Positions 297-16,098 of a stretch of DNA of 64,000 nucleotides are shown here, one piece after another. Each line of letters opens with the position of its first letter. Positions within the stretch are counted from its first letter, which is position 1. The DNA lies in NCBI GenBank assembly GCA_030583725.1, contig CP129472.1:671040-735039 (forward strand), written 5' to 3'. The notes beneath the pieces were generated by a model. The model was not told the DNA's origin. It searched no databases and was given only the letters and a program-made list of their open reading frames with translations. Both the position numbers and the translations under genes were made by a program. The stretch comes from a bacterium. GTDB taxonomy: Bacteria; Patescibacteriota; Microgenomatia; UBA8517.

Positions 297-311
297 ATTT
301 TCACCTCCTTT

Positions 312-346: not shown

Positions 347-453
347 GATGGAGTGTTTAGTTGAAAAACCGACGTGATTGGTTTCCCCATACCTTTTTTG
401 TGTGGTAATTTCTATTATATACCCATAGTCAAGTATTTGGTTGTAAGCAAGGC

Positions 454-481
454 TTGCATCATGCATTTCGTATGGTATAAT
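454..481 (+). promoter_or_regulatory. sigma70-like promoter upstream of 16S rRNA
   Basis: TTGCAT, 16-nt spacer, TATAAT (476-481), located ~380 nt upstream of the 16S 5' end. Confidence 0.4.
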
Positions 482-1595
482 TCTTCTACAAGTTTAAAGG
501 TTGACTCGTCTCTCGAGCTCGCTCAGGATTGATAACCTCCAAAAGAACCTTTACTTTACAAATTAAATAGTTACTAATAAATAAGTTTTAAATAAGAAAG
601 AGCCCAAGTTAATTTTTATTCGTTCGCTTTGTTCGTGTTTACTGCTTATTTATTGTTAATTATGATTTGTATTGTTCTTTGAAATTGAAATGTAATATGA
701 CAGTACAATAAATTAATTTGCCACATTACGTGGTAAATATGATTTCCACTAAATGTGGTAATCAAGATACAGAATATCGATATATTCTGGTTCAAGTTGT
801 GACTAGGAGTGTGTAGAGATGTTTCTAAAACATTAAAAAAATTTAGAACCGTCACTTTTTGAGGATTTGATCCTGGTCCAGGATGAACGCTAGCGACGTG
901 CTTTAGGCATGCAAGTGGAGCGAGGCATAGCAATATGCCTAGCCGCGAACGGCTGAGTATAAAATAGGAATCTACCCCTTGGTGTGGAATACCTCATCGA
1001 AAGATGAGCTAATACCGCATAAGACCGCAAGGTGAAAGCGCTTAACCGCGCGCCGATGGATGAGCCTATTTCCCATCAGCTAGTTGGTAAGGTAAAAGCT
1101 TACCAAGGCTATGACGGGTAGGGGATTTGAGAGGATGACCCCCCAGAATAGGACTGAGACACGGCCTATACACCTACGGGTGGCAGCAACCGGGAATCGT
1201 GCGCAATGGACGAAAGTCTGACGCCGCGACGTCGCGTGAAGGATGAAGGCGTTTTCGTCGTAAACTTCTTTTGCCATATGTGTGAACATATGGAGAATAA
1301 GCACCTGCTAACTCTGTGCCAGCAGCCGCGGTAATACAGAGGGTGCAAGCGTTATCCGGATTTATTGGGCGTAAAGCGTTTCGTAGGCGGTTTGGTAAGT
1401 TAGACTTCAAAGACCACGGCTTAACCGGGGGAAGGGGTTTAATACTGCCAGACTTGAGAATTTTAGGGGCAATCGGAACTGTTGGTGTAGGGGTGAAATC
1501 CGTTGATATCAACAGGAACGTCAAGGGCGTAGGCAGATTGCTGGGAAATTTCTGACGCTGAGGAACGAAAGCTAGAGTAGCGAAAGGGATGGGGT

Positions 1596-2636
1596 AATAA
1601 ACTCTAGTTCCTCCTTTAAGTAATTAAAGGTTTAAAAATTCGACTATATGCTGGAATAACTGAGAATCTTAAGCTAGTTGTTGACTTAGGTTTTAATTCG
1701 GATAATACTTAATTAATGCCCAAATTGATAACTGAAAATGCTTTAAGTGCAGTCAATCAGCAGGGAAGATCTCGTAAGAGAAACCCTCAGAGACTATATG
1801 TCGAATATCCTACTAGTAGTAAGAATGAAATGTCTGACATAGAAGCAACTTTATTGGGTATTTTATACACCGATGGTTGTCTATCTAAAAGGAGTAAGAA
1901 TGCATGGAGATTTTATCTAAGCAACACTTCTTACATAATTATACAAGTATTTAAAAATTGTATGATCAATCTTTTTAAATTAGATGCCAAAAGAGTACGA
2001 ATATCTAAAAAACAAGTTAATGGAAAACCTTTTTACAGAGCAGTTGTAGATAGTGCATCATCTGGAGAATTTTTAAATTCAAAATATGGTACATTTCGAA
2101 CACTAGTTTTTAAAAGTGAAGATGGTAAAGAAATTTATCCTTCGACAAAATTACCGTTTAACAAAAATTCTAATCTCAAAATAATGAGCAAGTTCTTAAA
2201 AGTTGCCTTTAGTTGTGATGGTGGCATAAATTTATACGTAGCGAAATCAAAGTTTGGATACAAATTTTTGATTAGGAATGTATATTTAGCTTGCAAGCAT
2301 CCACAATTACAGATTGATTATCACGAACTTTTGAAAGTTCTTGGTATCGAATCTAAAATTATTAAGGGAGATGGAAAAATACTTATTCAAGGCAGAAATG
2401 AGTTGAATAAGTTTAGAGAAAAAGTTGGTTTTATAGAAGGTGTAAAAATAACACAAAATTCTAAATTTTGGCAAGGTGTCGAAAAGCGGAATGTGTTAAA
2501 TATCGCAATTGGTTCTTACAAAAATCCGAAAAAGATAATCAATCTTTCGAGGTTTAGAGGATAAAGATATAGTCCGATCTCATAAGCGATTATGAGACTA
2601 CGTGTTGAATCGTAGTAAACAAACACTTAGTTTGTT
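1596..2636 (+). mobile_element. group I-like intron in 16S (E. coli ~pos 790 region) carrying a LAGLIDADG ORF
   Basis: 16S sequence breaks after GCGAAAGGGATGGGGT and resumes at ATAACAAGGTCTGTAGAGACCCCTGTAGTTC. 3' part contains GATAAAGATATAGTCCGA (S-element-like AAGATATAGTCC). Boundaries approximate (+/-10 nt). Confidence 0.7.
1716..2564 (+). CDS. LAGLIDADG homing endonuclease (two-motif) encoded within 16S intron 1
   Basis: Motif 1 LLGILYTDGCLSK and motif 2 KVAFSCDGGINLY. Lies entirely inside the intron. Confidence 0.7.
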   Translation: MPKLITENALSAVNQQGRSRKRNPQRLYVEYPTSSKNEMSDIEATLLGILYTDGCLSKRSKNAWRFYLSNTSYIIIQVFKNCMINLFKLDAKRVRISKKQVNGKPFYRAVVDSASSGEFLNSKYGTFRTLVFKSEDGKEIYPSTKLPFNKNSNLKIMSKFLKVAFSCDGGINLYVAKSKFGYKFLIRNVYLACKHPQLQIDYHELLKVLGIESKIIKGDGKILIQGRNELNKFREKVGFIEGVKITQNSKFWQGVEKRNVLNIAIGSYKNPKKIINLSRFRG

Positions 2637-2915
2637 GATAACAAGGTCTGTAGAGACCCCTGTAGTTCTAGCCGTAAACTTTGCCTGCTAGCGATGGGCT
2701 CGTAAGAGTCCGTTGCGTAAGCTAACGCGTTAAGCGGGCCGCCTGGGGAGTACGAACGCAAGTTTAAAACTCAAAGGAATTGACGGGAAGGCGCACAACC
2801 AGTGGAGCATGTGGTTTAATTCGAAACAAAACGAAGAACCTTACCCAGTCTTGACATACAACCGTACATTTCTCTGGAAACAGAGAGAAATTCTTTAGAA
2901 ATATTGAATGGTTGA

Positions 2916-2950
<35 letters not shown>

Positions 2951-2951
2951 A

Positions 2952-3835
2952 AGATAACACTTTGCGACCCACCAAAGTAATTTGGTGTGAGAAATCTGAC
3001 TCATATCGGGGGAACTATTGACTACGGATTATATTAGGTATAATCTAAAATCATACAATCCCGAGGGAAGTCGAGAATTTTACATGCTGGAATTTACTGC
3101 TCGTAAGAATTTAAAATTAAAAGTTTCCAATCTTCAAATGGAGATACTTTTAGGTTGTTTGCTTGGAGATGCTTGTATAACTAAACTTGGAAAAGTTCAG
3201 TTTGAACAAAGTATCAAACAACTTCCATATTTAATGTGGAAGTATAAAAAGTTAAACAATCTCGCTTACGGCATACCAACTTTTGTTAGTAGGTATGACG
3301 CAAGATATGGAAAAGAATATAAAAGTGCCAGATTCTGGCTCAGACAATATTTCAGACCATTAAGAGAAGAATTTTACCCTGAAGGAAGTAAAATTTTCCC
3401 TATTAAGTTTTCAAAATACTTTACTAAACTCGCTTTAGCAGTTTGGTATATGGATGATGGAAATATATATAAAGGTAGAAATATTAAAATTTCTGCTGAC
3501 AATTTTGATTCAAAGAGTAGGGAGGTACTTAAAAACTTACTTTTAACTAAGTTTGGTTTGGAAAGTACAATTCAGAATAGTGGGAAAATAAGAATTTCAG
3601 CGAAATCTGTCAATAGATTTCTAGGAATTGTTAAACCATATATTCATTCCAACATGTTATACAAGATTCTTTGACCCCGTAACGACTGATCCCCATAAAT
3701 ATTATTTATTTAAGAGGGAGAGATACATGATAATACGCTTGTATCAAACGTCAGCTCCTACATAGGTTTAAAACTTAAGTAGGATGAAGGTATAGTCTAA
3801 ATTATAATTATTTTTTAAATAAAATAATTGGAGGT
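2952..3835 (+). mobile_element. group I-like intron in 16S (E. coli ~pos 1070-1080) carrying a LAGLIDADG ORF
   Basis: 16S breaks after CAGCTCGTGTCGTAAGAT and resumes at GTTCCCTTCAGTGGGGTAACGAGCGCAACCC. 3' part contains AGGATGAAGGTATAGTC (S-element-like). Confidence 0.7.
3018..3674 (+). CDS. LAGLIDADG homing endonuclease (two-motif)
   Basis: LLGCLLGDACI and LALAVWYMDDGN motifs. Inside 16S intron 2. Confidence 0.75.
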   Translation: MTTDYIRYNLKSYNPEGSREFYMLEFTARKNLKLKVSNLQMEILLGCLLGDACITKLGKVQFEQSIKQLPYLMWKYKKLNNLAYGIPTFVSRYDARYGKEYKSARFWLRQYFRPLREEFYPEGSKIFPIKFSKYFTKLALAVWYMDDGNIYKGRNIKISADNFDSKSREVLKNLLLTKFGLESTIQNSGKIRISAKSVNRFLGIVKPYIHSNMLYKIL

Positions 3836-4143
3836 GTTCCCTTCAGTGGGGTAACGAGCGCAACCCCTGCCCTGAGTTAAATATTCTCAGGGGACTTCCC
3901 TCATTTATTGCGGGAGGAAGCGGGGACGATGTCAGGTCAGCATGGCCCTTATGACTGGGGCAACACACATACTACAATGGAGCCAACAATGGGTTGCCAA
4001 GCCGCAAGGCGGAGCTAATCCCATCAAATGGCTTCTCAGTTGGGATTGAGGGCTGCAACTCGCCCTCATGAACGTGGAATTGGTAGTAATCGCAGGTCAG
4101 CTATACTGCGGTGAATACGTTCTCGCCTTTTGTACACACCGCC

Positions 4144-5126
4144 AAGGAAGGTATTTATTCGTATATAAATATCAAATGGTAATTTCGCGCGAGGCAGTTA
4201 TAACAAGATTCAAGACGCCTGCAATTTTATTGCATGGTTGAATTGAACCTTGATATATGATTTTTCATAAAATCATATAATTTCTACCGAGTTCAAATCT
4301 CGGCCTCCAATACAACAATTGGAGCGTAGCCAAAAAAAATCGGCAGGTTGAGTCGGGTAACTGATCAACTGGAGGGCCTGAGGCAAATTGCAGGGATTTA
4401 AAGTAAATGGAGCTTAACAGCTTCAAACTAAAAAAAGCTATGACGACTTCTGTTGGGCGGTCAGAAGGAAGTTGTCCACGATAAAGCTTAAAGTTCATGC
4501 AAAGAACAGAATTTATAATGACCCTTGGAGATCCTAAAAAGATTAGAAAACAAACGCTTTTTAGGAAGTCAGCTTGTTCGTAGTAGTCGTTTTATGGTAA
4601 TATTTTAATATATCACCGTAGCGGTGAAGGGACAAACCGATTATGTCACCTGATTATATTACCGGATTAACTGATGGAGAAGGATGTTTTTACATTGGAA
4701 TTAGACTTCCAAAAGGTCCATTCAAAACAGTAAGAGTTGAGCCTCATTTTTATATCAAGCTAAGGGGAGATAATCTTCCATTACTTGAAGAAGTTCGAAA
4801 GACATTAAAATGTGGAGCAATTTATTACCAAAATGAAAAAAGAATTAATCATTCAGCCTGTTACAGGTATGAGGTTAATAATATAAAAGATCTTAAAGAA
4901 ATTTTAGTTCCATTCTTTGAAAAGTTCCCTTTATTGGGAGTTAAACAAAAAGATTTTCTTATTTTTAAGGAAGTTGTAAGTTTAGTTTTTCAAAATAAAC
5001 ATAAAGATCCAAAAGTAATTAGTAAAATAATCAAATTAAAATCGACAATGAATAATCGGACTCGCTGGATGCGGTAACACCGCTTGTCCAGTGGAAACGC
5101 ACTAAAGTTTTCAGTAAAGTGCAATC
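4144..5126 (+). mobile_element. intron-like insertion in 16S at E. coli ~pos 1400 (after GTACACACCGCC), class unresolved
   Basis: 16S breaks after GTACACACCGCC (4143) and resumes at CGTCAAGGCAG... leading to AAGTCGTAACAAGG. Carries a single-motif LAGLIDADG ORF at its 3' end. No AAGATATAGTCC element seen, unlike the other five introns. Confidence 0.6.
4643..5077 (+). CDS. LAGLIDADG homing endonuclease (single-motif, I-CreI-like type)
   Basis: ITGLTDGEGCF motif near the N-terminus. 144 aa. Inside 16S intron 3. Confidence 0.7.
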   Translation: MSPDYITGLTDGEGCFYIGIRLPKGPFKTVRVEPHFYIKLRGDNLPLLEEVRKTLKCGAIYYQNEKRINHSACYRYEVNNIKDLKEILVPFFEKFPLLGVKQKDFLIFKEVVSLVFQNKHKDPKVISKIIKLKSTMNNRTRWMR

Positions 5127-5387
5127 CGTCAAGGCAGTAAAGTTAAAGGTACCCGAACTTCGGTTTTACCGGAGGAAGGTAAATTTAGCGATAAGGCTTA
5201 AGTCGTAACAAGGTATCCCTACTGGAAGGTGGGGATGGATCACCTCCTTTCTAAGGAGTTGTAATATACACCCCTTTTTTAAGATGCAATGTTTAAAGGA
5301 CAAGAAAAAACGGCATTAAAAATCATGTTCCTAGTCGCAACTTGGATAATAAGATTGTACTGAAATAAAACAGAGAGTAGAACTAAC

Positions 5388-5410
5388 CTCGCAGAAATGC
5401 GGGGTTTTTT
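5388..5410 (+). terminator. rho-independent terminator after 16S
   Basis: CTCGCA-GAAA-TGCGGGG hairpin followed by TTTTTT. Confidence 0.5.
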
Positions 5411-5420
5411 AGTGTATTGA

Positions 5421-5447
5421 ACCGACTGAAAGGCCGGTTTTTTATTG
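5421..5447 (+). terminator. second terminator-like hairpin
   Basis: AACCG-actgaaaggc-CGGTT followed by TTTTATT. Confidence 0.35.
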
Positions 5448-5462
5448 GAGAAAATAGGCAAT

Positions 5463-5500
5463 AAAAAACCACCTAGTCAAATTGCCCTAGGCGGTTTTTA
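5463..5500. terminator. bidirectional terminator (serves the + strand and the minus-strand operon ending at 5512)
   Basis: A-run, then CCACCTAG...CTAGGCGG hairpin (7/8 bp), then TTTTTA. A/T runs on both sides. Confidence 0.45.
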
Positions 5501-5511
5501 TGATGTCAAAG

Positions 5512-5868
5512 CTATTTCAATATCGCAAATGCGATAATTGCCAAAATAACAATGACTCCAGCCACAAACATAATGATACGTCGATAACTTACATTCGCCG
5601 GCCAAAGATTGTCTGGATCGATTCCACCTTTTTCCAATTCACTGCGTTGGACAAAGACTGGCTTCATTCCGTAGACTTCTTTTCCGTTGATATCGTACGC
5701 GACATTACCTTTGCGTTTTGTTTTCCAACCAATGTGCAGATAATCGTCCTCATCGAAAAAACGAAATTCGGGATCACGATCACCTACATTAGTCAGAAAA
5801 ACCTCTCCATCACCCGTTTCTGGGTGATTCTTGTTAAACGACCACGTCTTGAACATTTTAGCCTCCAA
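5512..5868 (-). CDS. hypothetical protein with C-terminal TM helix (118 aa)
   Basis: GGAGG SD 7 nt upstream of the ATG on the minus strand. Hydrophobic C-terminus VAGVIVILAIIAFAIL. Downstream of the ATPase gene in the same orientation. The overlapping + strand ORF 5500..5886 is less protein-like. Confidence 0.55.
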   Translation of the reverse strand: MEAKMFKTWSFNKNHPETGDGEVFLTNVGDRDPEFRFFDEDDYLHIGWKTKRKGNVAYDINGKEVYGMKPVFVQRSELEKGGIDPDNLWPANVSYRRIIMFVAGVIVILAIIAFAILK

Positions 5869-5969
5869 TGTGCTATAGGATTATGATATTCAACGCAAAT
5901 GTTGAAATCTGAGGCTAATGGTACCACCACCACCACCACACATTGTCAAGTTATAGGGTATTTTTGCAG

Positions 5970-8090
5970 TTAAACCTTTGTTGCCCAGCGGGATCTGGAG
6001 ACATCAATTACTTTTTGTCTGTTTTGATTTTTGGATATAGGTAGTGGGAGGGTGTTGGCTACAAATGGCCTACTTGTTTGTCCATCAATCATCATTTTTA
6101 TAGCAATCTGATATTTTGAAAGATTAACAAGATCATTTTGTGAGAAAACCTCCGCAAATTCTTTATGTAATATGTCAGCGTCAGACGCACCTAAGGCAAA
6201 ACAAGTTACAGTTCCTGCGTTACCTAAAATTGCTTTTTGTACATCTTCTGGAATTTGGGCCATATATTGGTTTGCAAGCATAACGGAAAGCCTGTATTTT
6301 CTGGCTTCTGAAAGAATTTTAATAAATGATGTTGTTGCAAAGTTTTGGAATTCATCAACATACATAAAGAAGTCTCGTCTTTGTTCTTCTTCAATTTTGA
6401 CTCTTCTCATTGCAACCAACTGAAGTTTGGTTATAAGCATGGCACCGAGTAGGGCAGAGTTATCTTCACCCAATCTTCCCTGAGAAAGATTAGCAAGTAT
6501 TATTTTCCCTTCGTTCATCGCATCATCTAGGGCAATAGTTGATTTTGGACTACCTATAACTCGTCTAATCATGGGAGAAGTGACAAATTGACCTACTTTA
6601 TTTTGAATAGGGGCAATGGCCTCTTTTTGTAAATTGGGTGGCATTTTGTCAAACTCATCTCTCCAAAAGTTAACTAACGCCTTATCCTGTAATTTTTCTA
6701 CAACTCTTGCCCTGTACCCTTGATTTGAAATTAAGGAAAGTACATCAGCAAGTGTGGAACCTGGAACTTCCGCTAACGTTAAAAAAGCATTTCTTAAAAT
6801 ATATTCCATTCTGGCAGACCAGACGTTTGCCCAAACCTTTGTAAATATTGCCATTAAGCCTGAAACAACAAGCTCTGCTTCTTCCTTGTTCCTAACCTCT
6901 AGGGGATTAATAGTTATTGGATACTCAGTATCTGCGGGGTTAAAGTAGATAACATCATTAATTCTTCTTTTGGGTATGTAATCTAAAAGTATTTCACAAG
7001 CATCTCCATGGGGGTCAATGTAGCATATACCCCTGTCTTTTTTCATGTCATCTATGGCCATGTTTTCAAGCATGGTTGATTTTCCAGTTCCAGTTTTTCC
7101 AATTGCCCAAATATGTCTTCTTCTGTCTATGTCTTTAACTCCAAATATTGTGTCCCTGTTCTTAAATATTGTTTTACCAAAAAAGTTAATATGTTGTTTC
7201 TCTTCTTCTGTCGCAGTAATTGCGTTTGGCAAGTTTTCTGGAGGTTCAGATAGGACTGATGTGCCCCAAGCAATTGTTGCCGTTTTAATTTTGTCTGATG
7301 GTAGGTGCCAAAGTGTGGCAATTTCTAAAATATTTAAAATGTCATTTCCAATAACTTTTCTGTCAAGTAGATCATCGACAACCGAGGCCTTACCCCAAAG
7401 ACTAACCTTTTTTGATGTAAACGTATTTCCATCTGATCTTGTAAATACCCCCAAAGATGATGATAGCTCGTTCAGGGTTTTATTGGAGGTTGAAGCAACC
7501 CTTATTGATGCTTTAAATCCTGGGTAAGAAACTTTTTCAACTATTACACTTTTGTCCGTTCTTGGTGTATAAGTCCCATCTTCTTTTTTAGTGCCAAAAT
7601 CAGCATAGTTACTGCCTTTACTTTGCCAAGAGGAACTAGTCGCTTCAAGTGCAATTTGAACCATGGACACTTCGTTACTCTCTGCTTTTGAGAGAACAGA
7701 AAGGACTGAAGCCATTGGGTCAATGTCTGCAAACTTGTCATATGTAGCTATTGGATAATATGAACCATTCTTAAGTTTGAAATTTTTAACAAACAACGAT
7801 TGACTTTGTAGTGGGTCATTAATTTTTTGCATTATTACTAATGGGTAGTTACTTTGAAGTTGTGTTTGCACAAATCTTTCTAATTCTTCATCAACAGTAA
7901 TTAAAAATAATATTTGTTGATTTACGGTAACTAGTTCTAAAGATAATACTTGTGGTTTGGTTCCAAAGAGTTTTTGAAATGAAGAAACAGAACTAATTGA
8001 AGTCAAGGTAGAAAGAAATGTTTTTGCAGCCTCAGGAGTAACCTCTTGCAGGCGGGGTAGTTTGACAGAAATTGTAACTAAACGGGACAT
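5970..8090 (-). CDS. VirB4/TraG(VirD4)-superfamily P-loop ATPase (type IV secretion / conjugal-transfer type ATPase). ORF is open to 8285, but the probable start is the ATG at 8088-8090.
   Basis: Walker A IGKTGTGKST followed by a DPHGD motif. Walker B-like VDEFQNF. C-terminal ARKYRLSVMLANQ...GASDADIL resembles the VirB4/TrbE 'RKYN...ATQ' region. The first 65 codons of the long ORF are Cys/Ile-rich and not protein-like. A TATAAT -10 box sits just upstream of the 8090 ATG. Confidence 0.65.
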   Translation of the reverse strand: MSRLVTISVKLPRLQEVTPEAAKTFLSTLTSISSVSSFQKLFGTKPQVLSLELVTVNQQILFLITVDEELERFVQTQLQSNYPLVIMQKINDPLQSQSLFVKNFKLKNGSYYPIATYDKFADIDPMASVLSVLSKAESNEVSMVQIALEATSSSWQSKGSNYADFGTKKEDGTYTPRTDKSVIVEKVSYPGFKASIRVASTSNKTLNELSSSLGVFTRSDGNTFTSKKVSLWGKASVVDDLLDRKVIGNDILNILEIATLWHLPSDKIKTATIAWGTSVLSEPPENLPNAITATEEEKQHINFFGKTIFKNRDTIFGVKDIDRRRHIWAIGKTGTGKSTMLENMAIDDMKKDRGICYIDPHGDACEILLDYIPKRRINDVIYFNPADTEYPITINPLEVRNKEEAELVVSGLMAIFTKVWANVWSARMEYILRNAFLTLAEVPGSTLADVLSLISNQGYRARVVEKLQDKALVNFWRDEFDKMPPNLQKEAIAPIQNKVGQFVTSPMIRRVIGSPKSTIALDDAMNEGKIILANLSQGRLGEDNSALLGAMLITKLQLVAMRRVKIEEEQRRDFFMYVDEFQNFATTSFIKILSEARKYRLSVMLANQYMAQIPEDVQKAILGNAGTVTCFALGASDADILHKEFAEVFSQNDLVNLSKYQIAIKMMIDGQTSRPFVANTLPLPISKNQNRQKVIDVSRSRWATKV

Positions 8091-8160
8091 ATTTTTATTA
8101 TACAACCAACGGTCATCTATGAATAGTATATTGACAATCACATAAAGTTGTGTAATAGTA

Positions 8161-8421
8161 TTGTGTATGTTAGTACGAAGACAAATATTAATTGAGGAAA
8201 AACAAGCTTTGGATCTTGCTGATTTGGCAATGTTGCAAGGGATTTCTATGTCTGAAATGCATCGAAAAATACTTGAAACCGGCATTGAAATTCAGAAGAA
8301 ATCCGTAAAAGGTAAACATGTTAAAAAGGTATCTGGTGCAGATTTTATGATACAACAAGCAAAAAAGGCAGTTGCGGGTCCTGGAAATTCCGAATATGAT
8401 AAATATGCATATGATCTCTGA
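8161..8421 (+). CDS. putative antitoxin (VapB-like) of a VapBC pair; start uncertain (alternative ATGs at 8230/8248 with an AGGGA RBS)
   Basis: Small ORF ending 8421 and overlapping the start of the PIN-domain gene, a typical TA arrangement. No strong family motif recognised. Confidence 0.4.
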   Translation: MCMLVRRQILIEEKQALDLADLAMLQGISMSEMHRKILETGIEIQKKSVKGKHVKKVSGADFMIQQAKKAVAGPGNSEYDKYAYDL

Positions 8422-8827
8422 AGTTTTTGTTGACACAAATGTTTTTGTTACAATCCGCGATAATACAGACTCCACTCATAAAAAAGCATTAAAAATCTCT
8501 GAATATATATCCAAAAACAAAATTAAATGGGCCACATCTTCAGATGTAATAGGAGAGACATTAACTGTTATATCCAAAAAACTTGGTAAAGAAATAGCCA
8601 TAGATTGGTATAAAGATTTTAAAAACAGTAGCATAAGAGAAATTTTTATCGATGAGGCTACTCATCGAGAAACAAGGAAATTTTTCACAAAAGTTAAATC
8701 TAAAAATATTTCTTTTATAGATTGCTCAAACGTGATTGCAATGAAAAGAAATAAAATTAAACATATTTTTTCATTTGATGAATATTTTAGGAAGATGGGA
8801 GTAGAACTTCTTTCTGATGCGATTTAG
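8405..8827 (+). CDS. vapC: PIN-domain ribonuclease, VapC-like toxin
   Basis: N-terminal VFVDTNVFV (PIN first Asp), conserved acidic positions and SFDEYF near the C-terminus. ~140 aa. Confidence 0.7.
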   Translation: MHMISEVFVDTNVFVTIRDNTDSTHKKALKISEYISKNKIKWATSSDVIGETLTVISKKLGKEIAIDWYKDFKNSSIREIFIDEATHRETRKFFTKVKSKNISFIDCSNVIAMKRNKIKHIFSFDEYFRKMGVELLSDAI

Positions 8828-8858
8828 AACTTCGTATGTTAAAATAGTCAAGCTAGAA

Positions 8859-8930
8859 GGGTGATTGGCTCAGTGGTAGAGCGCGTTCCTGATAAGAACG
8901 AGGTCAATGGTTCGATCCCATTATCACCCA
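8859..8930 (+). tRNA. tRNA-Ile (anticodon GAT)
   Basis: Cloverleaf folded by hand. Acceptor GGGTGAT/ATCACCC, anticodon loop CTGATAA, T-loop TTCGATC. No encoded CCA. Confidence 0.85.
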
Positions 8931-8933
8931 CCT

Positions 8934-9173
8934 ATGGAAATAATTAGACAAGGCTTTCGTGTTGAAGTTGTTAATCAGTTTGGAAAACTATTTAGTGCCT
9001 TTTCAAATACCAAAGATGGTATAAATAATATGGTGGGAGACAAACTATCTGAATTGACAATGGAAGAGGGAATAGAACTTTCCAAGGGAACACAAGTCAA
9101 CACATACTCTGCTAAAAAAGTTGGTTGCCTTGTCCTTAAGGGCGATTTGATTGAATCAAAAAGAATTGCCTAA
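8934..9173 (+). CDS. hypothetical small ORF (80 aa); the track ORF start at 8907 overlaps the tRNA, so a later ATG is used
   Basis: ORF only. No motif. May be spurious spacer sequence. Confidence 0.25.
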   Translation: MEIIRQGFRVEVVNQFGKLFSAFSNTKDGINNMVGDKLSELTMEEGIELSKGTQVNTYSAKKVGCLVLKGDLIESKRIA

Positions 9174-9180
9174 GTTGCTC

Positions 9181-9215
9181 TTGACCAAAGCCCAAACTTA
9201 CCATATAATACACAC
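9181..9215 (+). promoter_or_regulatory. near-consensus sigma70 promoter
   Basis: TTGACC, 17-nt spacer, TATAAT. Confidence 0.5.
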
Positions 9216-9350
9216 TAGTCTTTAAGAGTTCGGAATACTTAATGAAAAAAATTAATTTAAATCAAAACCAAGACGCATTTTTGCGTGGGTGTAGATAACA
9301 AATAAGTTTTTATACGCGAAGCTTTCAAACTTCGTTTATACTTTAGAATT

Positions 9351-9385
9351 ACCCGACTCTTGTTAAAGAGCCGGTTTTTTTTGAC
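9351..9385 (+). terminator. rho-independent terminator-like hairpin
   Basis: CCGACTCTT-gtta-AAGAGCCGG (8/9 bp) followed by TTTTTTTT. Confidence 0.45.
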
Positions 9386-9430
9386 ATATTAATGTTTTGC
9401 CCAAGGTGAAGCGCAAGATGTTTACAACCT

Positions 9431-9478
9431 GGGCCGTTGGCTCAGTTGGTAAGCAAGCTTGGCCAACTGATTATTTTA
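9431..9478 (+). repeat. partial duplicate of the tRNA-Ala 5' half forming a hairpin
   Basis: First 21 nt (GGGCCGTTGGCTCAGTTGGTA) identical to the start of the tRNA-Ala that begins at 9479. Followed by an inverted complement (TCAGTTGG...CCAACTGA). Confidence 0.6.
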
Positions 9479-9551
9479 GGGCCGTTGGCTCAGTTGGTAG
9501 AGCGCTTCATTTGCAATGAAGAGGTCGGGAGTTCGAATCTCCCACGGTCCA
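9479..9551 (+). tRNA. tRNA-Ala (anticodon TGC)
   Basis: Cloverleaf folded by hand. G3:U70 Ala identity pair (GGGCCGT/ACGGTCC), anticodon loop TTTGCAA, T-arm GGGAG-TTCGAAT-CTCCC. Confidence 0.85.
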
Positions 9552-10335
9552 CAGCGATTGGATGTTAACTATTGGTTAATTAGTAATTTTGTTTACTAGT
9601 GATTAACAGTTAACAACTAATTGAACACTTTAGTACTTTGACAACTGAAGGATAAGAAACTTGCCACACGAAAGCGTGTGGTAAAAAAATTGCTACGTAG
9701 CTAATCGCTATGTAGTAATACGCACAACATTAGTAAAATGTTGTGCAAGTAAAGTGTCTACATAACCCTTTGTCCGGTTATGTAGAATGATTAGAAATAA
9801 GGCCGTTAATTAAAACACTACTAGTATGTAGTGTTGTAAGGTTTTTACATTAACGCAGATAGTGGATGCCTTGGTCGTATTTTCCGAAGAAGGACGTACA
9901 TAGCCACGATAGTCGACGGGGAACTGCTACGAAGTTTTGATCCGTCGGTGTCCGAATGGAGCAATCCCACCAATTTTATTGGTGACTTCACAGAAAAATT
10001 ATTAAATTTATTTAATTTATATCTGTGTTTGAGGGAACCAGCTGAACTGAAACATCTAAGTAAGCTGAGGAATAGAAATCAAAGAGATTACGTTAGTAGC
10101 GGCGAGCGAAAGCGTAACAGACTAAACCTAGTCCATACTTGTATGGTACTGGGGGTTGCGGGAGCCCAATGTGGGACTATTTTTAATAGTAGAACAATCT
10201 GGAATGGTTGATCAAAGAGAGTGAAAATCTCGTATACGAAATTAAAAATAGCTCTAGGGATTTCCCAAGTAGCATGAGACAAATATCTTGTGCGAATCCG
10301 GGGGAACCATCCTCCAAGTCTAAATAAAAATACGA

Positions 10336-10374
<39 letters not shown>

Positions 10375-11838
10375 AAGGGTGAGACACCCAATGAAATAGA
10401 AACTGAAACTATCTGCGGACAAACCGAGAGAGCATTGAAGCAATTCTTTGTGATCTCGTGCCTATTGAAGAATGAGCCTGCGAGTTCTCGCTTACTATTT
10501 AGTCTAAGACAGTAATACTGTCGAGGCGAAGCGAAAGCAAGTATGAAAGTGCGAAAAAAATAGTAACCGGGAGACCCGAAACCGAGTGATCTAACCTTGA
10601 GCAGGGTGAGTCCTTGAGAAATCAAGGAGGAGGCCCGAACCCGTTATCGTTGCAATGATATGGGATGACTTGTGGTTAGCGGCAAAATACCAACCGAACT
10701 CGGAGATAGCTGGTTCTCCCCGAAAGGTCTTTAGGGACCGCGCCATGGATGTTATTAAGGGGTAAAGCTACTGGATGAGTCATCGAGGGAAACTGAGTTG
10801 ATCCAACCAAACTAAGAATACTTAATAAATAAAGCATGGTAGACAGTCATATCGGGCTAAGCTGATATGGCAAAAGGGAAACATCCCAGATTTTCAGCTA
10901 AGGCCTCTAAATCCATTTTAAGTTTGTAAGGAAGTTTTCTCTCTTAGACAGCTAGGAGGTTGGCTTAGAAGCAGCCATCCTTTAAAGATAGCGTAACAGC
11001 TCACTAGTCGATTTGGAGAGGGAGCGCCTAAGATTTATCGAGGATTAAAAATGGTGCCGAAGCTAGAGATTTGATTTTAGATTCGTCTAGGATCAAGTGG
11101 TAGGGGAGCGTTCCATATGCAGTGAAGATGAACTGTAAGGTTTGTTGGAGCGTATGGAAGTGAGAATGCAGGCATGAGTAGCGTACAAGACGGGTGAGAA
11201 TCCCGTCCGCCGAATACCCGAGGTTTCCGTCGCTAGGTTCGTCCACGACGGGTTAATCGGTACCTAAGGTGAGGTCAGTTTACTGGCGTAGCCGAAGGAC
11301 AAGTTGTTAAAATTCAACTATTTTTTATGGATCGTTATTAACTAGGGATAACCGAACAGGAATATTGTAGCCCCTTATTGATTGGGGTATAAGTTGTAAA
11401 GCAGTTCTGACTAGAAAATCTACCAGAGCGTTTTAACCTGAGCAACGATGTAAATTCCGCCGCGAGGTGGGAGATTATAAACATTTCAGTTTGCAAGAAA
11501 AAATTCGTAGTGAGAGCCATAATTAGCCGTACCGCAAACCGACACAGGTGGGTTGGTAGAGAATACTAAGGCGATCGAGAGAAGGATCCTTAAGGAACTC
11601 GGCAAAAAAACTACCCGTAACTTCGGGAGATGGGTTTCCTATTCGTAATAGGATGGGAGGCACCTAAAGTTTGCTGACCGACTGTTTATCAAAAACACAG
11701 GTCTGTGCAAAATCGAAAGATTAAGTATACAGGCTGACGCCTGTCCAGTGCCGGTAGGTTAAAGGGAGGGGTGGTGCAAATTTATTTGTACTTGCTCTGA
11801 ACCAAAGCTCCGGTGAAACGACAGCAGTAACTATGAAC

Positions 11839-12607
11839 AACATTGTAGTTACGTAGGTATCGAATCCTACCGTCTATAATGACGCAAAACTTGGCTATAT
11901 GCTGGAATATCCGTGAAACCGTAACTTACGTTGATTTAGAATCAATGAACGGTTGAAGTATCTGACGCTACCGTGTATTATTTATATATGGTGACAATGC
12001 GATCAGTGCGGACAATCAGCAGGAAAGGCCTAAATGAGGACAACATAGGATATTTCATCTCTGGATTTACTGAAGGAGAAGGAAGTTTCAATATATCATT
12101 ACGAAAGAAACCTGATTACAAATTGGGTTGGCAAGTAGTATTGAGTTTTAATATCTCACAAAAAGATGTTTCTCTTTTGAATTTGATTCAAGAAATATTA
12201 AATTGTGGAATTATTAAAACAAGAAAAATTGATAATCTTCATTCTTTTGATGTTACCAACGTAGATGACATAACTGAAAAAGTTATACCATTTTTTCAAA
12301 AATATCCATTACTTTCAGAATCAAAGAAAAGAAATTTTTCTATTTTCTGTGAAGTTTCTAACCTTGTAAAAAGAGGAGAACACAGAAACGAATCAGGACT
12401 TAAAGAGATTTTAAATCTTCGAGAAAAAATAAATGAAGGTAAAGGTAGAACTAGAAAATACAGTATAAATGATGTTTTTCCAATTTAGGAATCCCCAGAG
12501 ACTACACGCCGAGACTCAGTTTTTATCGAATTGAGTATGATATAGTCCGACCTCATTAAGCGATTATGAGAATTTGATCTAACGAATCAAAATTAACATT
12601 AGTGAAC
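11839..12607 (+). mobile_element. group I-like intron in 23S (E. coli ~pos 1917 region, between GTAACTATGAAC and TGTTCTAAGGTAGCG)
   Basis: Interrupts the conserved GTAACTATAACGGTCCTAAGG region. 3' part has GTATGATATAGTCCGACC (S element). Confidence 0.7.
11973..12488 (+). CDS. LAGLIDADG homing endonuclease (single-motif)
   Basis: FISGFTEGEGSF motif. 171 aa. Inside 23S intron 1. Confidence 0.7.
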   Translation: MYYLYMVTMRSVRTISRKGLNEDNIGYFISGFTEGEGSFNISLRKKPDYKLGWQVVLSFNISQKDVSLLNLIQEILNCGIIKTRKIDNLHSFDVTNVDDITEKVIPFFQKYPLLSESKKRNFSIFCEVSNLVKRGEHRNESGLKEILNLREKINEGKGRTRKYSINDVFPI

Positions 12608-12738
12608 TGTTCTAAGGTAGCGAAGTTCCTTGCCAGGTAAGTTCTGGCCCGCACGAAAGGCGTCACGAGTTAGCAACTGTCTTGAGGATTCACTCGGCGA
12701 AATTGCGTTGGCTGTGAAGACGCGGCCTAATCCCACTT

Positions 12739-12770
<32 letters not shown>

Positions 12771-13170
12771 TTTGGCATTGTCTTAATAATTTTTGATCGT
12801 CTAGTATAGGAGGGAGCCGTTAAAAGCATCAGTGTAATACCTCCCGTTAGAAATTATTGGACTTACTCATTTCCCCTGAAGACGGGGAAGGGAAAAGTGC
12901 TAGATGGGCAGTTTTACTGGGGCGGTACCCTGCCAAAGTGTAACGCAGGGGCACAAAGGTTGGCTTGCTACGGATGGAAATCGTAGTGTAACTGCAAAGA
13001 GATAAGCCAGCTTGACTGCAACACCGAAGGGTGAAGCAGGTACGAAAGTAGGTCTTAGTGATCCCCCGATCCTTCATGGGAGGGACGGGGCTTAACTGAT
13101 AAAAGCTACCCCGGGGATAACAGAGTAGTCGCGCCCGAGAGTCCATATCGACGGCGCGGTTCGCTACCTC

Positions 13171-13997
13171 AACATATCGGGGTCTTCTGAAAGTGATTTC
13201 AGAATGCTGTGTTTAAATTCAACCAGTAATTTAAACAAAAATTCAACTCATAACGGTGAAACCTTATTTCATTTCGTATTATTTTCGGATAATATTAATA
13301 TGAAAGGGTAATACCGTGGGAAGTTTATCGAGAGTTCAGAAACAAGTAATTTTAGGTTCAATTTTGGGTGATGGTTACATGAGAAAGAAAACCAACGCTC
13401 ATTTGCAAATAACACATTCTTATAAACAAAAAGAATATGTTGATTGGAAATACGAAATTTTAACAGATTTAGTATTAACAAAACCCTCTAGTTATAGAGG
13501 AAATGCAGATCGGATAGGTTATAGATTTTTCACCAAATCAATACCAGAATTAACTAAATTTTACGATATTTTTTACAAAGGAAAGGAAAAGATAGTTCCG
13601 AAAGGAATTGTTTTAACTCCAATTACTTTAGCTATTTGGTATATGGATGATGGCAACAAAAGTTATAGAAGCTGTTATTTTAATACCCAAAAGTTTAGTA
13701 GCAAAAGCCAAGAAAACTTAATGGATTCATTAAGTTTAATTGGAATCAACTCTAGGCTAAATAGAGATAAAAAGTATTTTAGAATAAGAATTACCACAGA
13801 AAGTACAAAAATACTTTTTGGAATGATAAAGAAATTTATTATTCCTAGTATGTTGTACAAAATCTCGATATAACCCCGTATCGACTTGTTCCGCTTGAAG
13901 GAACAGATGGAAGTATTCCATAACACGTTGACATCCAAGATGTTTTAATTGGATGAAGGTATAGTCAAGCTATTATGTAAATAATATGGTTTTTTGC
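13171..13997 (+). mobile_element. group I-like intron in 23S (between ...GCTACCTC and GATGTCGGCTC; E. coli ~pos 2449 region)
   Basis: Interrupts CACCTCGATGTCGGCTC. 3' part has GGATGAAGGTATAGTC (S element). Confidence 0.7.
13316..13873 (+). CDS. LAGLIDADG homing endonuclease (two-motif)
   Basis: ILGSILGDGYM and LAIWYMDDGN motifs. 185 aa. Confidence 0.75.
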   Translation: MGSLSRVQKQVILGSILGDGYMRKKTNAHLQITHSYKQKEYVDWKYEILTDLVLTKPSSYRGNADRIGYRFFTKSIPELTKFYDIFYKGKEKIVPKGIVLTPITLAIWYMDDGNKSYRSCYFNTQKFSSKSQENLMDSLSLIGINSRLNRDKKYFRIRITTESTKILFGMIKKFIIPSMLYKISI

Positions 13998-14089
13998 GAT
14001 GTCGGCTCATCACATCCTAGGGCTGGAGAAGGTCCTAAGGGTTGGTCTGTTCGCCCATTAAAGTGATACGCGAGCTGGGTTCAGAACGT

Positions 14090-14387
14090 AAATAACATTG
14101 CGTTACACATTAGTAATAATGTGAGTAAATATCGACTAAAATCGGTGAAACCCTAGATTAGATTCGTCCGAGTCTAATTGGGTAATACCGAGGGTAAGAC
14201 AAAATCTTTTTAGATTTTGTATCCCGTAGAGACTGATTCGAAAGAAGAGGCATCAAATTAATTGGTGCAATACGTCGACGCCTATTAGAAAGACCTAGGA
14301 ATATGGTTAAAGTAACCTAAATTTCAGGAATAGGATGAAGATATAGTCCATGCAACTAGTAATAGTTGAATAACATGCGTGAGACAG
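14090..14387 (+). mobile_element. ORF-less group I-like intron in 23S at the E. coli ~2593 site (between GGGTTCAGAACGT and CGTGAGACAGTTCGG)
   Basis: 298-nt insertion exactly between the conserved AGAACGT and CGTGAGACAG. Contains GGATGAAGATATAGTCC (S element). Ends in G. No ORF of 60 aa or longer. Confidence 0.65.
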
Positions 14388-14516
14388 TTCGGACTCTATC
14401 CAGTGGGATCGTTCGAGTTTTGATGGGAGTTGTCCACAGTACGAGAGGACCTGGATGAAGGAATCCCTAGTGTGCCGGTTGTGTCATCAGATGCAGCGCC
14501 GGGTAGCTACATTCCT

Positions 14517-14555
<39 letters not shown>

Positions 14556-14810
14556 CCAAAGATTAGAACTCGTAGTCCGAAAGGACGAGAGACCCCCGAA
14601 AGAATATCGGGTATAACCGGAAGTAGGTGGAAGCGCCGTAAGGCGTTAAGCTTAACTTTACGGATTGGTCGAAGAAAACCTTACAACATTGTATACAAGG
14701 TATATGGTGTTAACGATTAACAAATGTTTATTCAAACTTTGCGTAGCAAAGTAGTGGATAAACCTATTATTTCTAGTATAAAATTATCCTTCAGTTGTCA
14801 GGGTATTTAA

Positions 14811-14930
14811 GTCTTGGTGATTTGAGCGTGGTGGAACTACCTGAATCCATTCCGAACTCAGAAGTAAAACGCCATAGCGCGGACGATAGTTGTGGGGCAA
14901 CCTACCGCGAAAATACGTCATCGCCAAGAC
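14811..14930 (+). rRNA. rrf: 5S rRNA
   Basis: GTCTTGGTGA...CCGAACTCAGAAGTAAAACGCCATAGCGC...GCCAAGAC. Terminal helix complementary (GTCTTGGTG/CGCCAAGAC). 120 nt. Confidence 0.8.
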
Positions 14931-14976
14931 TTAGGTACTCTGATAGAATACAAAAAAGAAAGGTAGGACATGAATT

Positions 14977-16098
14977 TTGGCAACAAAAACAAAAAATAAG
15001 CAAAGCTTGGCCAGCAAGACTGGCAATTCGACATCTAAATCAGTCACAATGGCTGATTTGTTGGTTAAACATAACTCTTCTATTAAAAATCTTTCACTTG
15101 GACAAAGGGTAAAAGGTATTGTTATTCAGAAACTTTCAAAATCGCTAATTCTAGATATTAAAGGAAAGGCAGAAGGTGTGGTTGCTGAAAAGGCATTTGT
15201 TGAAGCTCGCGAGTATATTTCAAAGTTAAAGGTGGGGGATGAAGTAACAGCAGTAGTTTTGGTTCCAGAAATGAGAGATGGTTCAACCTTACTATCTTTA
15301 CGTGACGCTGTTTCCCAAGCCTCATGGAAAGGTGTTGAAGAAGCCTTTAAAAATGGTACGGAAGTTGCAGTATTGGCAAAATCCTCAACCTCTTCAGGTG
15401 TTTCAGTTGATGTCAATGGAATTAGTGGTTTTGTTCCAACCTCACAACTTTCAAAAGAATTAACCGCTGATATTGATAAACTAGTTGGTAAATATTTTAA
15501 GGCTAAAGTTATCGAAGTAGATAGACAAAAAAATAAGTTAGTTCTTTCTGAAAGAGAAGTAACGAATGCAAAAGATATTGCAGAAGCCAAGAAAATATTA
15601 TCTTCCATCAAAGACGGAGATTTGTTCGATGCAGTGGTTACCACGGTTGCAAATTTTGGAGTGTTTGCAAAAATCAATTTTAGTAAATCAGAGATAGAGG
15701 GTTTGGTTCACGTTTCAGAAATATCTTGGGGCAAAGTAGCCCATCCTTCAGATGTGTTAAAAATTGGAGACAAAATAAAAGTAAAGGTAATTGGTACCAA
15801 AGATGGAAAACTTGCACTTTCTATTAAAAATGCAACCAAAGATCCATGGATGGAAGCTGATAAAAAGTTTAAAACAGAAGATAGACTTTCTGGAAAAGTA
15901 ACAAAAGTTACAGACTTTGGTATTTTTGTTGAGTTAGAGCCTGGCATTGAAGGCCTTGTTCATATGACAAAAATTGCCCCAGGAAGAAAGTTTTCAGTGG
16001 GTGATGAAGTAAAAGTTTATATAGAAGAAATTGATACAAAGTCAAGAAAAATTGCGCTAGGTTTGGTCTTAACTTCAATTCCTGTAGGCTACAAGTAA
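14977..16098 (+). CDS. rpsA: 30S ribosomal protein S1 (four S1 domains); start may be the ATG at ~15049
   Basis: Repeated S1-domain signatures: GQRVKGIVI, GDEVTAVVL, GISGFVPTSQLS, GKYFKAKVIEVD, GDLFDAVVTTVANFGVFAKI, GLVHVSEISWGKV, GKVTKVTDFGIFVEL...GLVHMTKI. Confidence 0.8.
   Translation: MATKTKNKQSLASKTGNSTSKSVTMADLLVKHNSSIKNLSLGQRVKGIVIQKLSKSLILDIKGKAEGVVAEKAFVEAREYISKLKVGDEVTAVVLVPEMRDGSTLLSLRDAVSQASWKGVEEAFKNGTEVAVLAKSSTSSGVSVDVNGISGFVPTSQLSKELTADIDKLVGKYFKAKVIEVDRQKNKLVLSEREVTNAKDIAEAKKILSSIKDGDLFDAVVTTVANFGVFAKINFSKSEIEGLVHVSEISWGKVAHPSDVLKIGDKIKVKVIGTKDGKLALSIKNATKDPWMEADKKFKTEDRLSGKVTKVTDFGIFVELEPGIEGLVHMTKIAPGRKFSVGDEVKVYIEEIDTKSRKIALGLVLTSIPVGYK

Follow-up and report, generated by a model that had tools for sequence, protein, structure and literature searches.

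In the 64-kb window analyzed here, by which we mean the whole stretch of DNA under study (positions 671,040 to 735,039 of contig CP129472.1, from a bacterium of the Microgenomatia) and to which all our genome-level negative results refer, the genes for 16S and 23S rRNA are separated by a gap of 4,588 bp, since the 16S ends at 5251 and the 23S recognized by Rfam starts at 9840. That gap contains an ATPase gene of the VirB4/VirD4 kind oriented antisense to the rRNAs, a gene for a small membrane protein, a VapB-like/VapC pair, two tRNA genes, and, between the tRNAs, a conserved leader RNA that is probably an attenuator of the tRNA-Ala–23S–5S unit. A preliminary description made from the sequence had listed these genes, all of which were recovered in place by Rfam, ARAGORN, Pfam, and open-reading-frame (ORF) calls, and had proposed that protein-coding genes colonized the 16S–23S spacer, which proposal is borne out by the ATPase, the small ORF, and the VapB-like/VapC pair lying between 5251 and 9840. 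To the same description the ATPase, together with the VapB-like/VapC pair, looked like the remnant or the cargo of an inserted conjugative or mobile element; in contrast, we find the layout of the spacer to be normal for a large Woesebacteria-like clade of the Microgenomatia, whose rRNA locus has been inherited vertically in this form, and not a recent insertion. Taken as a whole, an explanation combining an inherited layout, separate transcription units, an attenuator leader, and a role for the ATPase in a type IV secretion or DNA-transfer machinery appears likely to us. The features of the locus are the following:

855-5251, plus strand: 16S rRNA gene, its 3' segment at 5085..5251, recognized through the Rfam small-subunit pieces, the anti-Shine–Dalgarno (anti-SD) end, and blastn alignment to the 16S 3' ends of relatives
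5382..5413, plus strand: predicted intrinsic terminator T1, an 8-pair stem (12 pairs with the outer extension in the minimum-free-energy, MFE, fold) followed by U6
5464..5500, both strands: predicted bidirectional terminator (A-run, hairpin, U-run) that would end the 16S transcript on the plus strand and that of the small-protein/ATPase unit on the minus strand
5512..5856, minus strand: small tail-anchored membrane protein of 114 aa, likely start ATG 5856 behind GGAGG
5970..8090, minus strand: orphan VirB4/VirD4-like ATPase, an intact ORF of 706 aa, soluble
8091..8166, both strands: divergent intergenic region with consensus-level promoter matches
8167..8421, plus strand: VapB-like antitoxin candidate of 84 aa from ATG 8167, overlapping the vapC start
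8411..8827, plus strand: VapC PIN-domain toxin, in an ORF from 8372 with its likely start at ATG 8411
8859-8932, plus strand: tRNA-Ile(GAU), by ARAGORN and Rfam, 31 nt past the vapC stop
9181..9209, plus strand: near-consensus sigma-70-type promoter, TTGACC-17-TATAAT, with 11/12 matches
9216..9382, plus strand: conserved leader RNA, candidate attenuator
9479-9552, plus strand: tRNA-Ala(UGC), by ARAGORN and Rfam, the first gene of the tRNA-Ala–23S–5S unit
9840-13222, plus strand: 23S rRNA gene, by Rfam, with Pfam identifying an inserted LAGLIDADG ORF at 11973-12488
14813-14929, plus strand: 5S rRNA, by Rfam, with rpsA next, from 14977

We compared this arrangement with that of 115 loci, 25 of them from species-representative genomes, 80 from metagenomes, and 10 from viral contigs, in which we mapped the rRNAs, the tRNAs, and the proteins of the window (individual loci are cited below by their L numbers). 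Orthologs of the ATPase occupied the same antisense slot between the 16S and the tRNA-Ile/23S in about 30 independent Woesebacteria/Microgenomatia assemblies. All 28 full-length homologs having at least 60% identity adjoined a tRNA-Ile(GAU), with the 16S 3' end convergent downstream in 18 of them, the 23S upstream in 17, and both in 10; where an rRNA neighbor was missing, the contig ended, except in L018, with no 16S within 10 kb downstream, and in L013 and L016, with no 23S within 10 kb upstream. Four homologs of 49–55% identity (L034, L035, L036, and L054) were likewise linked to rRNA, and Rfam confirmed the layout in L004, L021, L026, L031, and L034. The spacer attains its minimal form in L021 (2,906 bp) and in L034 (about 2.8 kb), in which loci it is composed of the ATPase and the two tRNAs only. 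The closer an ATPase was in sequence to that of the window, the closer also were the rRNA genes beside it, both the 16S (rho 0.89, n = 15, with identities down to about 76%) and the 23S (rho 0.83, n = 16), and further outward the order 5S–rpsA–radA is syntenic across the clade (the window, L004, L017, L021, L031, and L034). The shared site and orientation, the co-divergence with the rRNA, the syntenic flank, and the lack of marks of mobility, described below, together indicate that the ATPase is an old and vertically inherited resident of the locus. The preliminary description had itself named, as one half of a case against an insertion, the finding of the same gene content at this position in related genomes as an ancestral and non-mobile arrangement, and for the ATPase this is what the comparison yielded.

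The ATPase bears a Walker A motif GKTGTGKS at residues 331–338 and a Walker B motif FMYVDE at 575–580, and these catalytic motifs are invariant. The Pfam matches above the cut-offs fall in its C-terminal half and belong to coupling-protein families (TraG-D_C, 35.3 bits against a cut-off of 22; TrwB_AAD_bind, 33.1 against 20.5), so that the protein possesses the nucleotide-binding and all-alpha domains of the type IV coupling proteins (T4CPs); the match to DUF87 (HerA) was marginal (27.2 bits against 23.2), and the NCBIfam TraD models scored far below their cut-offs. TrwB was the best solved relative in sequence. An AlphaFold model (pLDDT 77) resembled TrwK/VirB4, TrwB, Cag-beta, DotL, and HerA, the Foldseek comparison with TrwB giving an E of about 1e-9 and a target-normalized TM of about 0.6. 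In that model the N-terminal domain (residues 1–300) has a VirB4-type fold, and the motor has an FtsK/HerA fold with a TrwB-like all-alpha insertion, which succession of an N-terminal domain and a C-terminal RecA-like ATPase in a soluble or peripheral protein is the two-domain architecture of VirB4, although no VirB4 sequence family of Pfam or NCBIfam matched. A first reading from Pfam and NCBIfam as VirD4-type, and not VirB4, was accordingly revised, as the N-terminal fold matched VirB4. PF26449 is the family precomputed for the N-terminal part, and none of the papers searched mentions that accession. We found no transmembrane (TM) anchor, the highest 19-residue hydropathy window (1.65, residues 48–66) being a beta-hairpin in the model. 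As modeled, the protein is a soluble hybrid of a VirB4-like N-terminal domain with a VirD4/TrwB-like motor, and from fold and family we regard it as most likely a hexameric NTP-driven translocase that would be tied to the dispersed type IV secretion or DNA-transfer machinery of the Patescibacteria.

The assignment of the ATPase to the VirB4/TraG superfamily in the preliminary description therefore stood, supported by Pfam, by TrwB as the best solved relative, and by the fold comparison, and these comparisons placed the protein in the VirB4/VirD4 (TraG) branch and not among unrelated HerA-like helicases with a defense partner, the other half of that case against the original reading. A HerA or defense helicase was considered and rejected: the PADLOC HerA models matched at 1e-6 over short stretches, with mad8 best at 3e-17, and no partner was conserved, neither NurA, nor Sir2, nor another effector, the downstream genes varying by lineage. 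By Pfam, the window contained no VirB3-, VirB6-, or VirB8-type neighbor of the ATPase and no relaxase or type IV secretion system (T4SS) cluster, neither of which was found beside the orthologs either; nor did any neighbor of the family that might hint at its function recur universally across the 115 loci. The family is very large, with 5,935 clusters at 50% identity matching below 1e-30.

Flanking the conserved ATPase are two variable slots, which hold differing cargo in the related loci—secreted or anchored proteins, an AAA/Trans_reg_C protein, and many small ORFs. In the window, the slot between the ATPase and the tRNA-Ile holds vapBC, and that between the ATPase and the 16S the small membrane protein. 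The VapC matched the Pfam PIN family (1.3e-11, 45.6 bits against a cut-off of 23.6), scored far below the cut-off of the NCBIfam VapC model, and had as its best solved relatives the Mycobacterium tuberculosis VapC20 (PDB 5WZF, 1.9e-6) and AF_1683, with VapC26 also listed. VapC20 is an endonuclease that cuts the sarcin–ricin loop of the 23S rRNA. The toxin gene follows a small overlapping antitoxin-type gene, as VapBC modules do. For the product of the latter no Pfam or NCBIfam family was found, a sequence search of the PDB for a VapB fold gave only spurious matches to designed repeat proteins, and the N-terminus looks ribbon–helix–helix-like; the label VapB rests on its size, on its overlap with vapC, and on its co-occurrence with vapC in L005 and L014, the only other related loci with vapBC, where the pair lies in the same spot. 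Thus, within the VapB-like/VapC pair of the preliminary description the toxin is secured by its PIN domain, and the antitoxin is backed by its context in place of a family match. For the divergent promoters postulated at about 8090-8160, consensus matches exist on the vapBC side (8131-8159, 10/12, with TG) and on the ATPase side (8154-8125, 9/12), but promoter-like sites are no more frequent in this region as a whole than in shuffled sequence.

The small membrane protein, which has a C-terminal TM or hydrophobic segment, is a member of a family of 26 homologs; in other genomes these adjoin IleRS/FtsZ or L19/RuvC, and not the ATPase or rRNA, and no homolog was found in any related rRNA locus. 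For these reasons we rejected it as an operon partner of the ATPase. Like vapBC, it is an accessory addition specific to its lineage, and these two are the only components of the spacer with a distribution patchy enough for a later arrival.

Three alternatives to the inherited layout have to be considered. Had a conjugative or integrative element, with a T4SS ATPase and a toxin–antitoxin (TA) addiction module, recently been inserted, leaving 4.4 kb as its decayed remnant, we would understand why the ATPase falls within the VirB4/VirD4 branch, which is of the conjugation type, why a TA pair—typical cargo of mobile genetic elements (MGEs)—occurs in only three of the related loci, and why the closest relative, L001, has a large serine recombinase adjoining the tRNA-Ile. 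Moreover, more distant relatives of the motor half of the ATPase reside on viral or MGE-like contigs (IMG/VR), and homologs of 50–53% identity in L022, L032, L033, and L085 are not linked to rRNA, which two observations weigh against our interpretation: the arrangement is therefore clade-specific (among roughly 50 homologs below 49% identity we found no rRNA linkage at all), and an origin of the ATPase in an ancient mobile element is conceivable. For a recent insertion, however, the ATPase is too constant, occurring at one site and in one orientation in those independent assemblies down to about 50% identity, with intact and invariant catalytic motifs and in co-divergence with the rRNA. In addition, the spacer of the window contains no recombinase or integrase ORF (5252-9839), its flanks share only short chance-level matches in place of direct repeats or att sites, its GC content (0.33–0.40) shows no break against that of the surroundings (0.32–0.44), and Pfam detected in the remaining 56 kb none of the T4SS components that the preliminary description had advised looking for elsewhere in the genome. 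Even the VapC of L014 and L005, with 68% and 59% identity to that of the window, scales with the ATPase (84% and 75%), which is the pattern expected under vertical descent. With an ATPase universal in the clade and only vapBC and the small ORF patchy, we consider an insertion very unlikely and, for the ATPase, largely refuted.

A functional tie between the ATPase and the rRNA—whether antisense RNA running out of the 16S sets the ATPase inversely to growth, or the protein serves the ribosome or the rRNA introns—would account for the antisense position beside the 16S being kept over so deep a divergence, as well as for the compact loci L004, L005, L021, L034, and L035, in which the stop of the ATPase and the end of the 16S are only 94–200 bp apart and no terminator was picked up in a crude scan. 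Nevertheless, the whole neighborhood including 5S–rpsA–radA is syntenic, so that no special force is needed for the retention; the homologs below 50% identity function away from rRNA; in the window strong predicted terminators insulate the 16S from the ATPase; and neither Pfam nor the fold comparison gave a hint of RNA or ribosome binding. We accordingly hold such a tie to be improbable. Finally, rRNA regions are notorious break points in metagenomes and many of the related contigs end at or near rRNA, which circumstance could raise the suspicion of a chimeric contig joining a 16S fragment to an unrelated region through an error of assembly or binning; but the junctions of the 16S end with the ATPase, and of the ATPase with the tRNA-Ile and on to the 23S, are met again in dozens of assemblies made independently, among which are a single-cell genome and contigs measuring 0.7–1.1 Mb (L004, L016, L021), and the source contig of the window measures 841,695 bp, so that the probability of an artifact is negligible. 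We thus retain the vertically inherited layout. As to individual members of the family, the ATPase of L022 (10001-12103, 50% identical) lies between rpsA and radA, downstream of the 23S–5S and not between 16S and 23S, and the gene is split into two ORFs in both L022 and L021, by a frameshift or a sequencing error.

The next question concerns how such a divided locus is transcribed. The 16S 3' end carries the anti-SD GGATCACCTCCTT at 5237-5249. Downstream, T1 folds with a dG of -14.2 kcal/mol (z -4.8), none of 200 shuffles folding as well, and the bidirectional site at 5464-5500 reaches a dG of -13.3 (z -3.9) on the plus strand and of -17.8 (z -4.8) on the minus strand; of the terminators that had been proposed at 5388-5500 these two are thus predicted to fold far better than shuffled sequence, but the middle hairpin (5419-5446) is weak (z -1.5). 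Of the 26 loci in which a 16S 3' end is present, 19 have a terminator-like hairpin with a U-run within 330 nt past the 16S, about half of them at 150–200 nt. At the other end of the spacer, the promoter with 11/12 matches between the tRNA-Ile and the tRNA-Ala is present in the window and in 14 related loci. Because an antisense gene lies between the rRNAs, because a hairpin follows the 16S in those 19 loci, and because the promoter is found in 15, the separate transcription of 16S and 23S, asserted in the preliminary description, is strongly implied by the sequences.

Since the conserved promoter lies downstream of the tRNA-Ile, that tRNA would remain outside the 23S transcription unit, which position fits its inversion in relatives; and since no promoter-like site of its own was detected, in the window it may be co-transcribed with vapBC. 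Three units would result: the 16S; the tRNA-Ile, here perhaps with vapBC; and the leader–tRNA-Ala–23S–5S. The tRNA-Ile(GAU) is inverted relative to the tRNA-Ala/23S in ten loci (L001, L007–L012, L014, L015, and L028), two close relatives of the window among them. The inverted tRNA-Ile of L001 is abutted, and on paper overlapped, by the ORF of a large serine recombinase of 549 aa (L001:77-1726). A 79-codon ORF begins directly past the tRNA-Ile of the window (8934-9173); it has a counterpart in the corresponding position of L004 only, with 32% identity, and is possibly a genuine small gene. The tRNA-Ala, in turn, has its first 21 nt (GGGCCGTTGGCTCAGTTGGTA; 9479-9499) repeated without a mismatch at 9431-9451, 48 nt upstream, which looks like a scar of duplication or recombination.

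The promoter at 9181 had been described as lying in front of the tRNA-Ala–23S–5S; it is near-consensus and conserved, but it does not directly precede the tRNA-Ala, a terminator hairpin with U8 (9353-9382) being interposed. The segment between the promoter and the end of that U-run forms the leader RNA, whose length across the loci is 130–165 nt and in which, on the plus strand, the following elements accompany a boxA-like sequence, UCUUUAAGAG:

9226-9233: antiterminator 5' strand, GAGUUCGG, complementary to the terminator 5' arm
9242-9298: upstream ORF (uORF) of 18 codons, MKKINLNQNQDAFLRGCR, with its AUG at 9242
9273-9286: hairpin H2, covering the last uORF codons, which covaries
9353-9374: leader terminator, CCGACUCUU-GUUA-AAGAGCCGG, followed by U8 at 9375-9382

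Of an initial set of 15 leaders, 13 had a terminator-like hairpin with U5–8 about 110–175 nt past the -35 box of the promoter. From 13 leaders we built a covariance model (R1) with which we scanned 1.14 Mb: it recovered 21 copies, every one of them on the rRNA strand of an rRNA-linked locus and between the tRNA-Ile and the tRNA-Ala, and none in the non-linked loci or elsewhere in the window. Since RNAalifold on a MAFFT alignment gave only three pairs of the terminator, we tested the named structures instead. The leader terminator was 95% paired, with compensatory changes on both sides in four of its five pairs. In the antiterminator 86% of the cells were paired in a fixed register versus 25–51% when the partner was slid, and both strands change together in L015 as well as, with a small register shift, in L019, L020, L029, and L034. 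The terminator 5' arm therefore has an alternative upstream partner with which it covaries, as in attenuators. The two states are near iso-energetic: the unconstrained MFE structure adopts the antiterminator in 10 of 20 leaders, and when the first ~40 nt are kept from pairing, 19 of the 20 form the terminator.

The uORF AUG is invariant and lies 8 nt past GAGUUCGG. In all 20 complete copies the frame starting there remains open for 15–18 codons, versus 2–26 in frame 2, and a purine-rich GGA/GAG, a weak Shine–Dalgarno (SD) sequence overlapped by GAGUUCGG, is found 7–14 nt 5' of the AUG. Downstream, the distance from the leader U-run to the tRNA-Ala shrinks to 6 nt in L034, 15 nt in L014, and 37 nt in L029, and in no locus did we find a promoter of at least 10/12 between the leader terminator and the tRNA-Ala; with such short gaps and no promoter within them, whatever transcribes the tRNA-Ala–23S–5S must cross the leader terminator.

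No leader family was detected by Rfam in the window (1–16000) at E <= 0.01; at E <= 10 only terminator-driven matches far below the gathering thresholds appeared, with none in six related loci, and the match to L10_leader was weak (E 0.93) and aligned to the terminator only. In eight loci (L007, L008, L009, L011, L012, L015, L021, and L027) a conserved ORF of ~70 aa with coiled-coil character (MKQLSDKEKLVALLKKLEEYEAK...) and without a Pfam family lies between the leader terminator and the tRNA-Ala. In L009 the leader terminator is apparently lost. Three others (L003, L026, and L031) have at that position a structured-looking insert of ~110 nt, which displays the motif GTGAACGAATAGTTC inside a long hairpin and for which Rfam gave no match.

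From this architecture we propose that, because transcription into the 23S must pass the leader terminator, the leader acts as an attenuator. By default, a free GAGUUCGG would pair with the terminator 5' arm and the RNA polymerase would read through; if GAGUUCGG were occupied, the simplest candidate being a ribosome that loads on the uORF, the terminator would form and transcription would stop at the U-run, in which event the free translational capacity of the cell would feed back on the synthesis of the large-subunit rRNA. That the uORF is translated, with the position of the ribosome deciding the outcome, is a part of this proposal. This ribosome-fed feedback, and with it the further step of seeing in the leader a new class of cis-regulator, namely a uORF-coupled attenuator that gates an unlinked tRNA-Ala–23S–5S(–rpsA) unit, we take only as a tentative possibility. 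Several considerations weigh against the attenuator: an intrinsic terminator is unexpected before the most highly expressed genes of the cell, and a boxA-type antitermination complex could override it; the covariation is drawn from 13–21 related sequences, with the shifted-register cases of L019, L020, L029, and L034 having been judged by eye; and the uORF gives no third-position or codon-position signal, the peptide being unconserved beyond an initial M-K/R, so that the AUG might be an RNA motif. The promoters, the terminators, and the uORF are all predictions.

The leader could instead be an independent and strongly expressed small gene, for a microprotein of 15–18 aa or for a small RNA, with its own promoter and terminator, while the tRNA-Ala–23S–5S would be transcribed from another, non-consensus promoter, by constitutive leakage, or through antitermination by Nus factors, with no switch involved. 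A promoter, a short ORF, and a terminator do compose a complete gene-like unit, the eight loci named above have the further, coiled-coil ORF between the terminator and the tRNA-Ala, and the predicted uORF peptides are basic and amphipathic, in the manner of very small ribosome-associated proteins. A boxA-like UCUUU(U/A)AGAG also follows the leader start site. Against the small gene, the gaps of a few nucleotides in L034, L014, and L029 require that the 23S transcription traverse the terminator; a plain terminator needs no 5' motif covarying with its 5' arm; and the sequence of the peptide is not conserved. We therefore judge this alternative unlikely and continue to regard the leader as probably an attenuator of the tRNA-Ala–23S–5S unit.

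If the leader functions as proposed, the device could balance the 23S against the separately transcribed 16S: organisms in which the 16S is uncoupled from the 23S need other means of subunit balance, for which the leader is a concrete candidate, and an attenuator control of rRNA synthesis would be unprecedented. As far as the literature that we searched and Rfam indicate, a leader with uORF, terminator, and antiterminator before a tRNA-Ala–23S–5S unit is undescribed; our searches for an rRNA-leader peptide or attenuator, or for a linkage of T4CP with rRNA, found no precedent, the absence of which is not thereby proven. With respect to the spacer, the appearance of mobile debris, created by a conjugation-type ATPase and a TA pair inside an rRNA operon, is a tempting misreading that is now corrected for the ATPase.

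The rRNA genes themselves are interrupted. Five ORFs for LAGLIDADG homing endonucleases were found (1716-2564, 3018-3674, 4643-5077, 11973-12488, and 13316-13873): three insertions with such ORFs stretch the 16S to 4.4 kb, one further ORF is located inside the 23S, and, because the fifth occupies the 1.6-kb gap between 23S and 5S, the 5S is more than 1.5 kb away from the 23S as well. Between the 5S and the start of rpsA, the gene for the ribosomal protein S1, lie 48 nt in which no terminator-like site was seen, and rpsA may share a transcript with the 23S–5S. Some 370 nt 5' of the 16S, an extended -10 TGGTATAAT occurs at ~473-481, and the sequences TTGTTCTTTGAAA before the 16S (~690-710) and GTACTTTGACAACT before the 23S (~9625-9640) are presumably boxA-like. 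The remaining 56 kb encode rpsA, radA, rho, a sortase, LeuRS, ArgRS, comEA/comEC, and similar genes, along with accessory or defense-like ones (33455-37018, 37082-44188, 46007-46408, and 60426-61160)—two AAA_14/DUF4143 ATPases, a 2,368-aa Laminin_G_3 protein, a CopG-type antitoxin, and an AbiEii toxin—and five consecutive minus-strand ORFs at 46435-50893 without a convincing Pfam match.

It is common for the 16S and 23S genes of the candidate phyla radiation to be unlinked (CPR; bioRxiv 10.1101/705046), and Lui et al. (PMC8172020) distinguished as type D those separated by more than 2 kb with opposite-strand genes between. With a gap of 4,588 bp that contains two minus-strand genes, for the ATPase and the small membrane protein, the present locus is unlinked in the sense of Brewer and belongs to that type. 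The likeness extends to a gap of more than 1,500 bp, to an opposite-strand gene between, and to homing endonucleases in and between the rRNA genes, the latter having been noted by those authors between rRNA genes. The distances of 2,872, 8,467, 8,974, and 8,985 bp published for Microgenomatia (PMC8172020) match the 2.8–8.7 kb that we obtained in all two-gene loci but L031 (about 12 kb). Those papers give distances and categories, and not the identity of the spacer gene, the depth of its conservation, the free-standing tRNA-Ile, or the leader; thus, the gene behind the 2.9–9 kb distances of the Microgenomatia is now identified, which identity, together with its conservation depth, constitutes a modest addition to what was already published on unlinked rRNA in the CPR.

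A survey of 2,918 Patescibacteria genomes reported 5,713 VirD4-like T4CP homologs, only 148 of which lay near virB4; its authors consider that the homologs may have been exapted, and it places the virB4 clusters of the Microgenomatia near dnaA/dnaN (PMC12102498). Our ATPase resembles those homologs in being detected by T4CP profiles, and they too are usually far from virB4, with relaxases absent and a role other than conjugation suspected; the survey makes no mention of linkage to rRNA. Canonical T4CPs have an N-terminal TM anchor, in place of which the present protein carries the VirB4-like domain. With TrwB of R388 (PDB 1E9R/1GKI) and with TrwK, the corresponding VirB4 (PDB 7O42/8RTD), it shares the FtsK/HerA-fold motor, the Walker A and B motifs, and the all-alpha insertion at a sequence identity of only 10–17%; unlike them, it has no TM segment, and no genes for VirB3/6/8, a relaxase, or a pilin were found nearby (by Pfam in the window). 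Among the orphan coupling-protein homologs of the Patescibacteria a subgroup of orthologs is thereby defined that keeps one place in the genome, begins with a VirB4-like domain, and lacks a membrane anchor, which subgroup offers a practical handle for functional work. The vapBC genes, for their part, agree with the type II modules, such as that of VapC20, in the PIN domain and in the small overlapping ORF of antitoxin size upstream, and differ from them in an antitoxin of no recognizable family and in their unusual place inside an rRNA locus, with a tRNA-Ile 31 nt downstream.

The leader, finally, recalls the leader-peptide attenuators (trp, his, and the uORFs of the erm/cat type) and the L10 (rplJL) leader of Bacillus subtilis (PMC4538822), having like them a promoter, a short leader with an ORF, mutually exclusive antiterminator and terminator structures, and a link to an operon for ribosome components. 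What would be attenuated here is a tRNA–rRNA unit, and not an mRNA as in the known examples; and the uORF contains no regulatory codon run and no conserved arrest peptide. Inasmuch as the 5' strand of the antiterminator precedes the uORF and covers its SD sequence, the arrangement suggests a sensing of ribosome loading rather than of codon-specific stalling.

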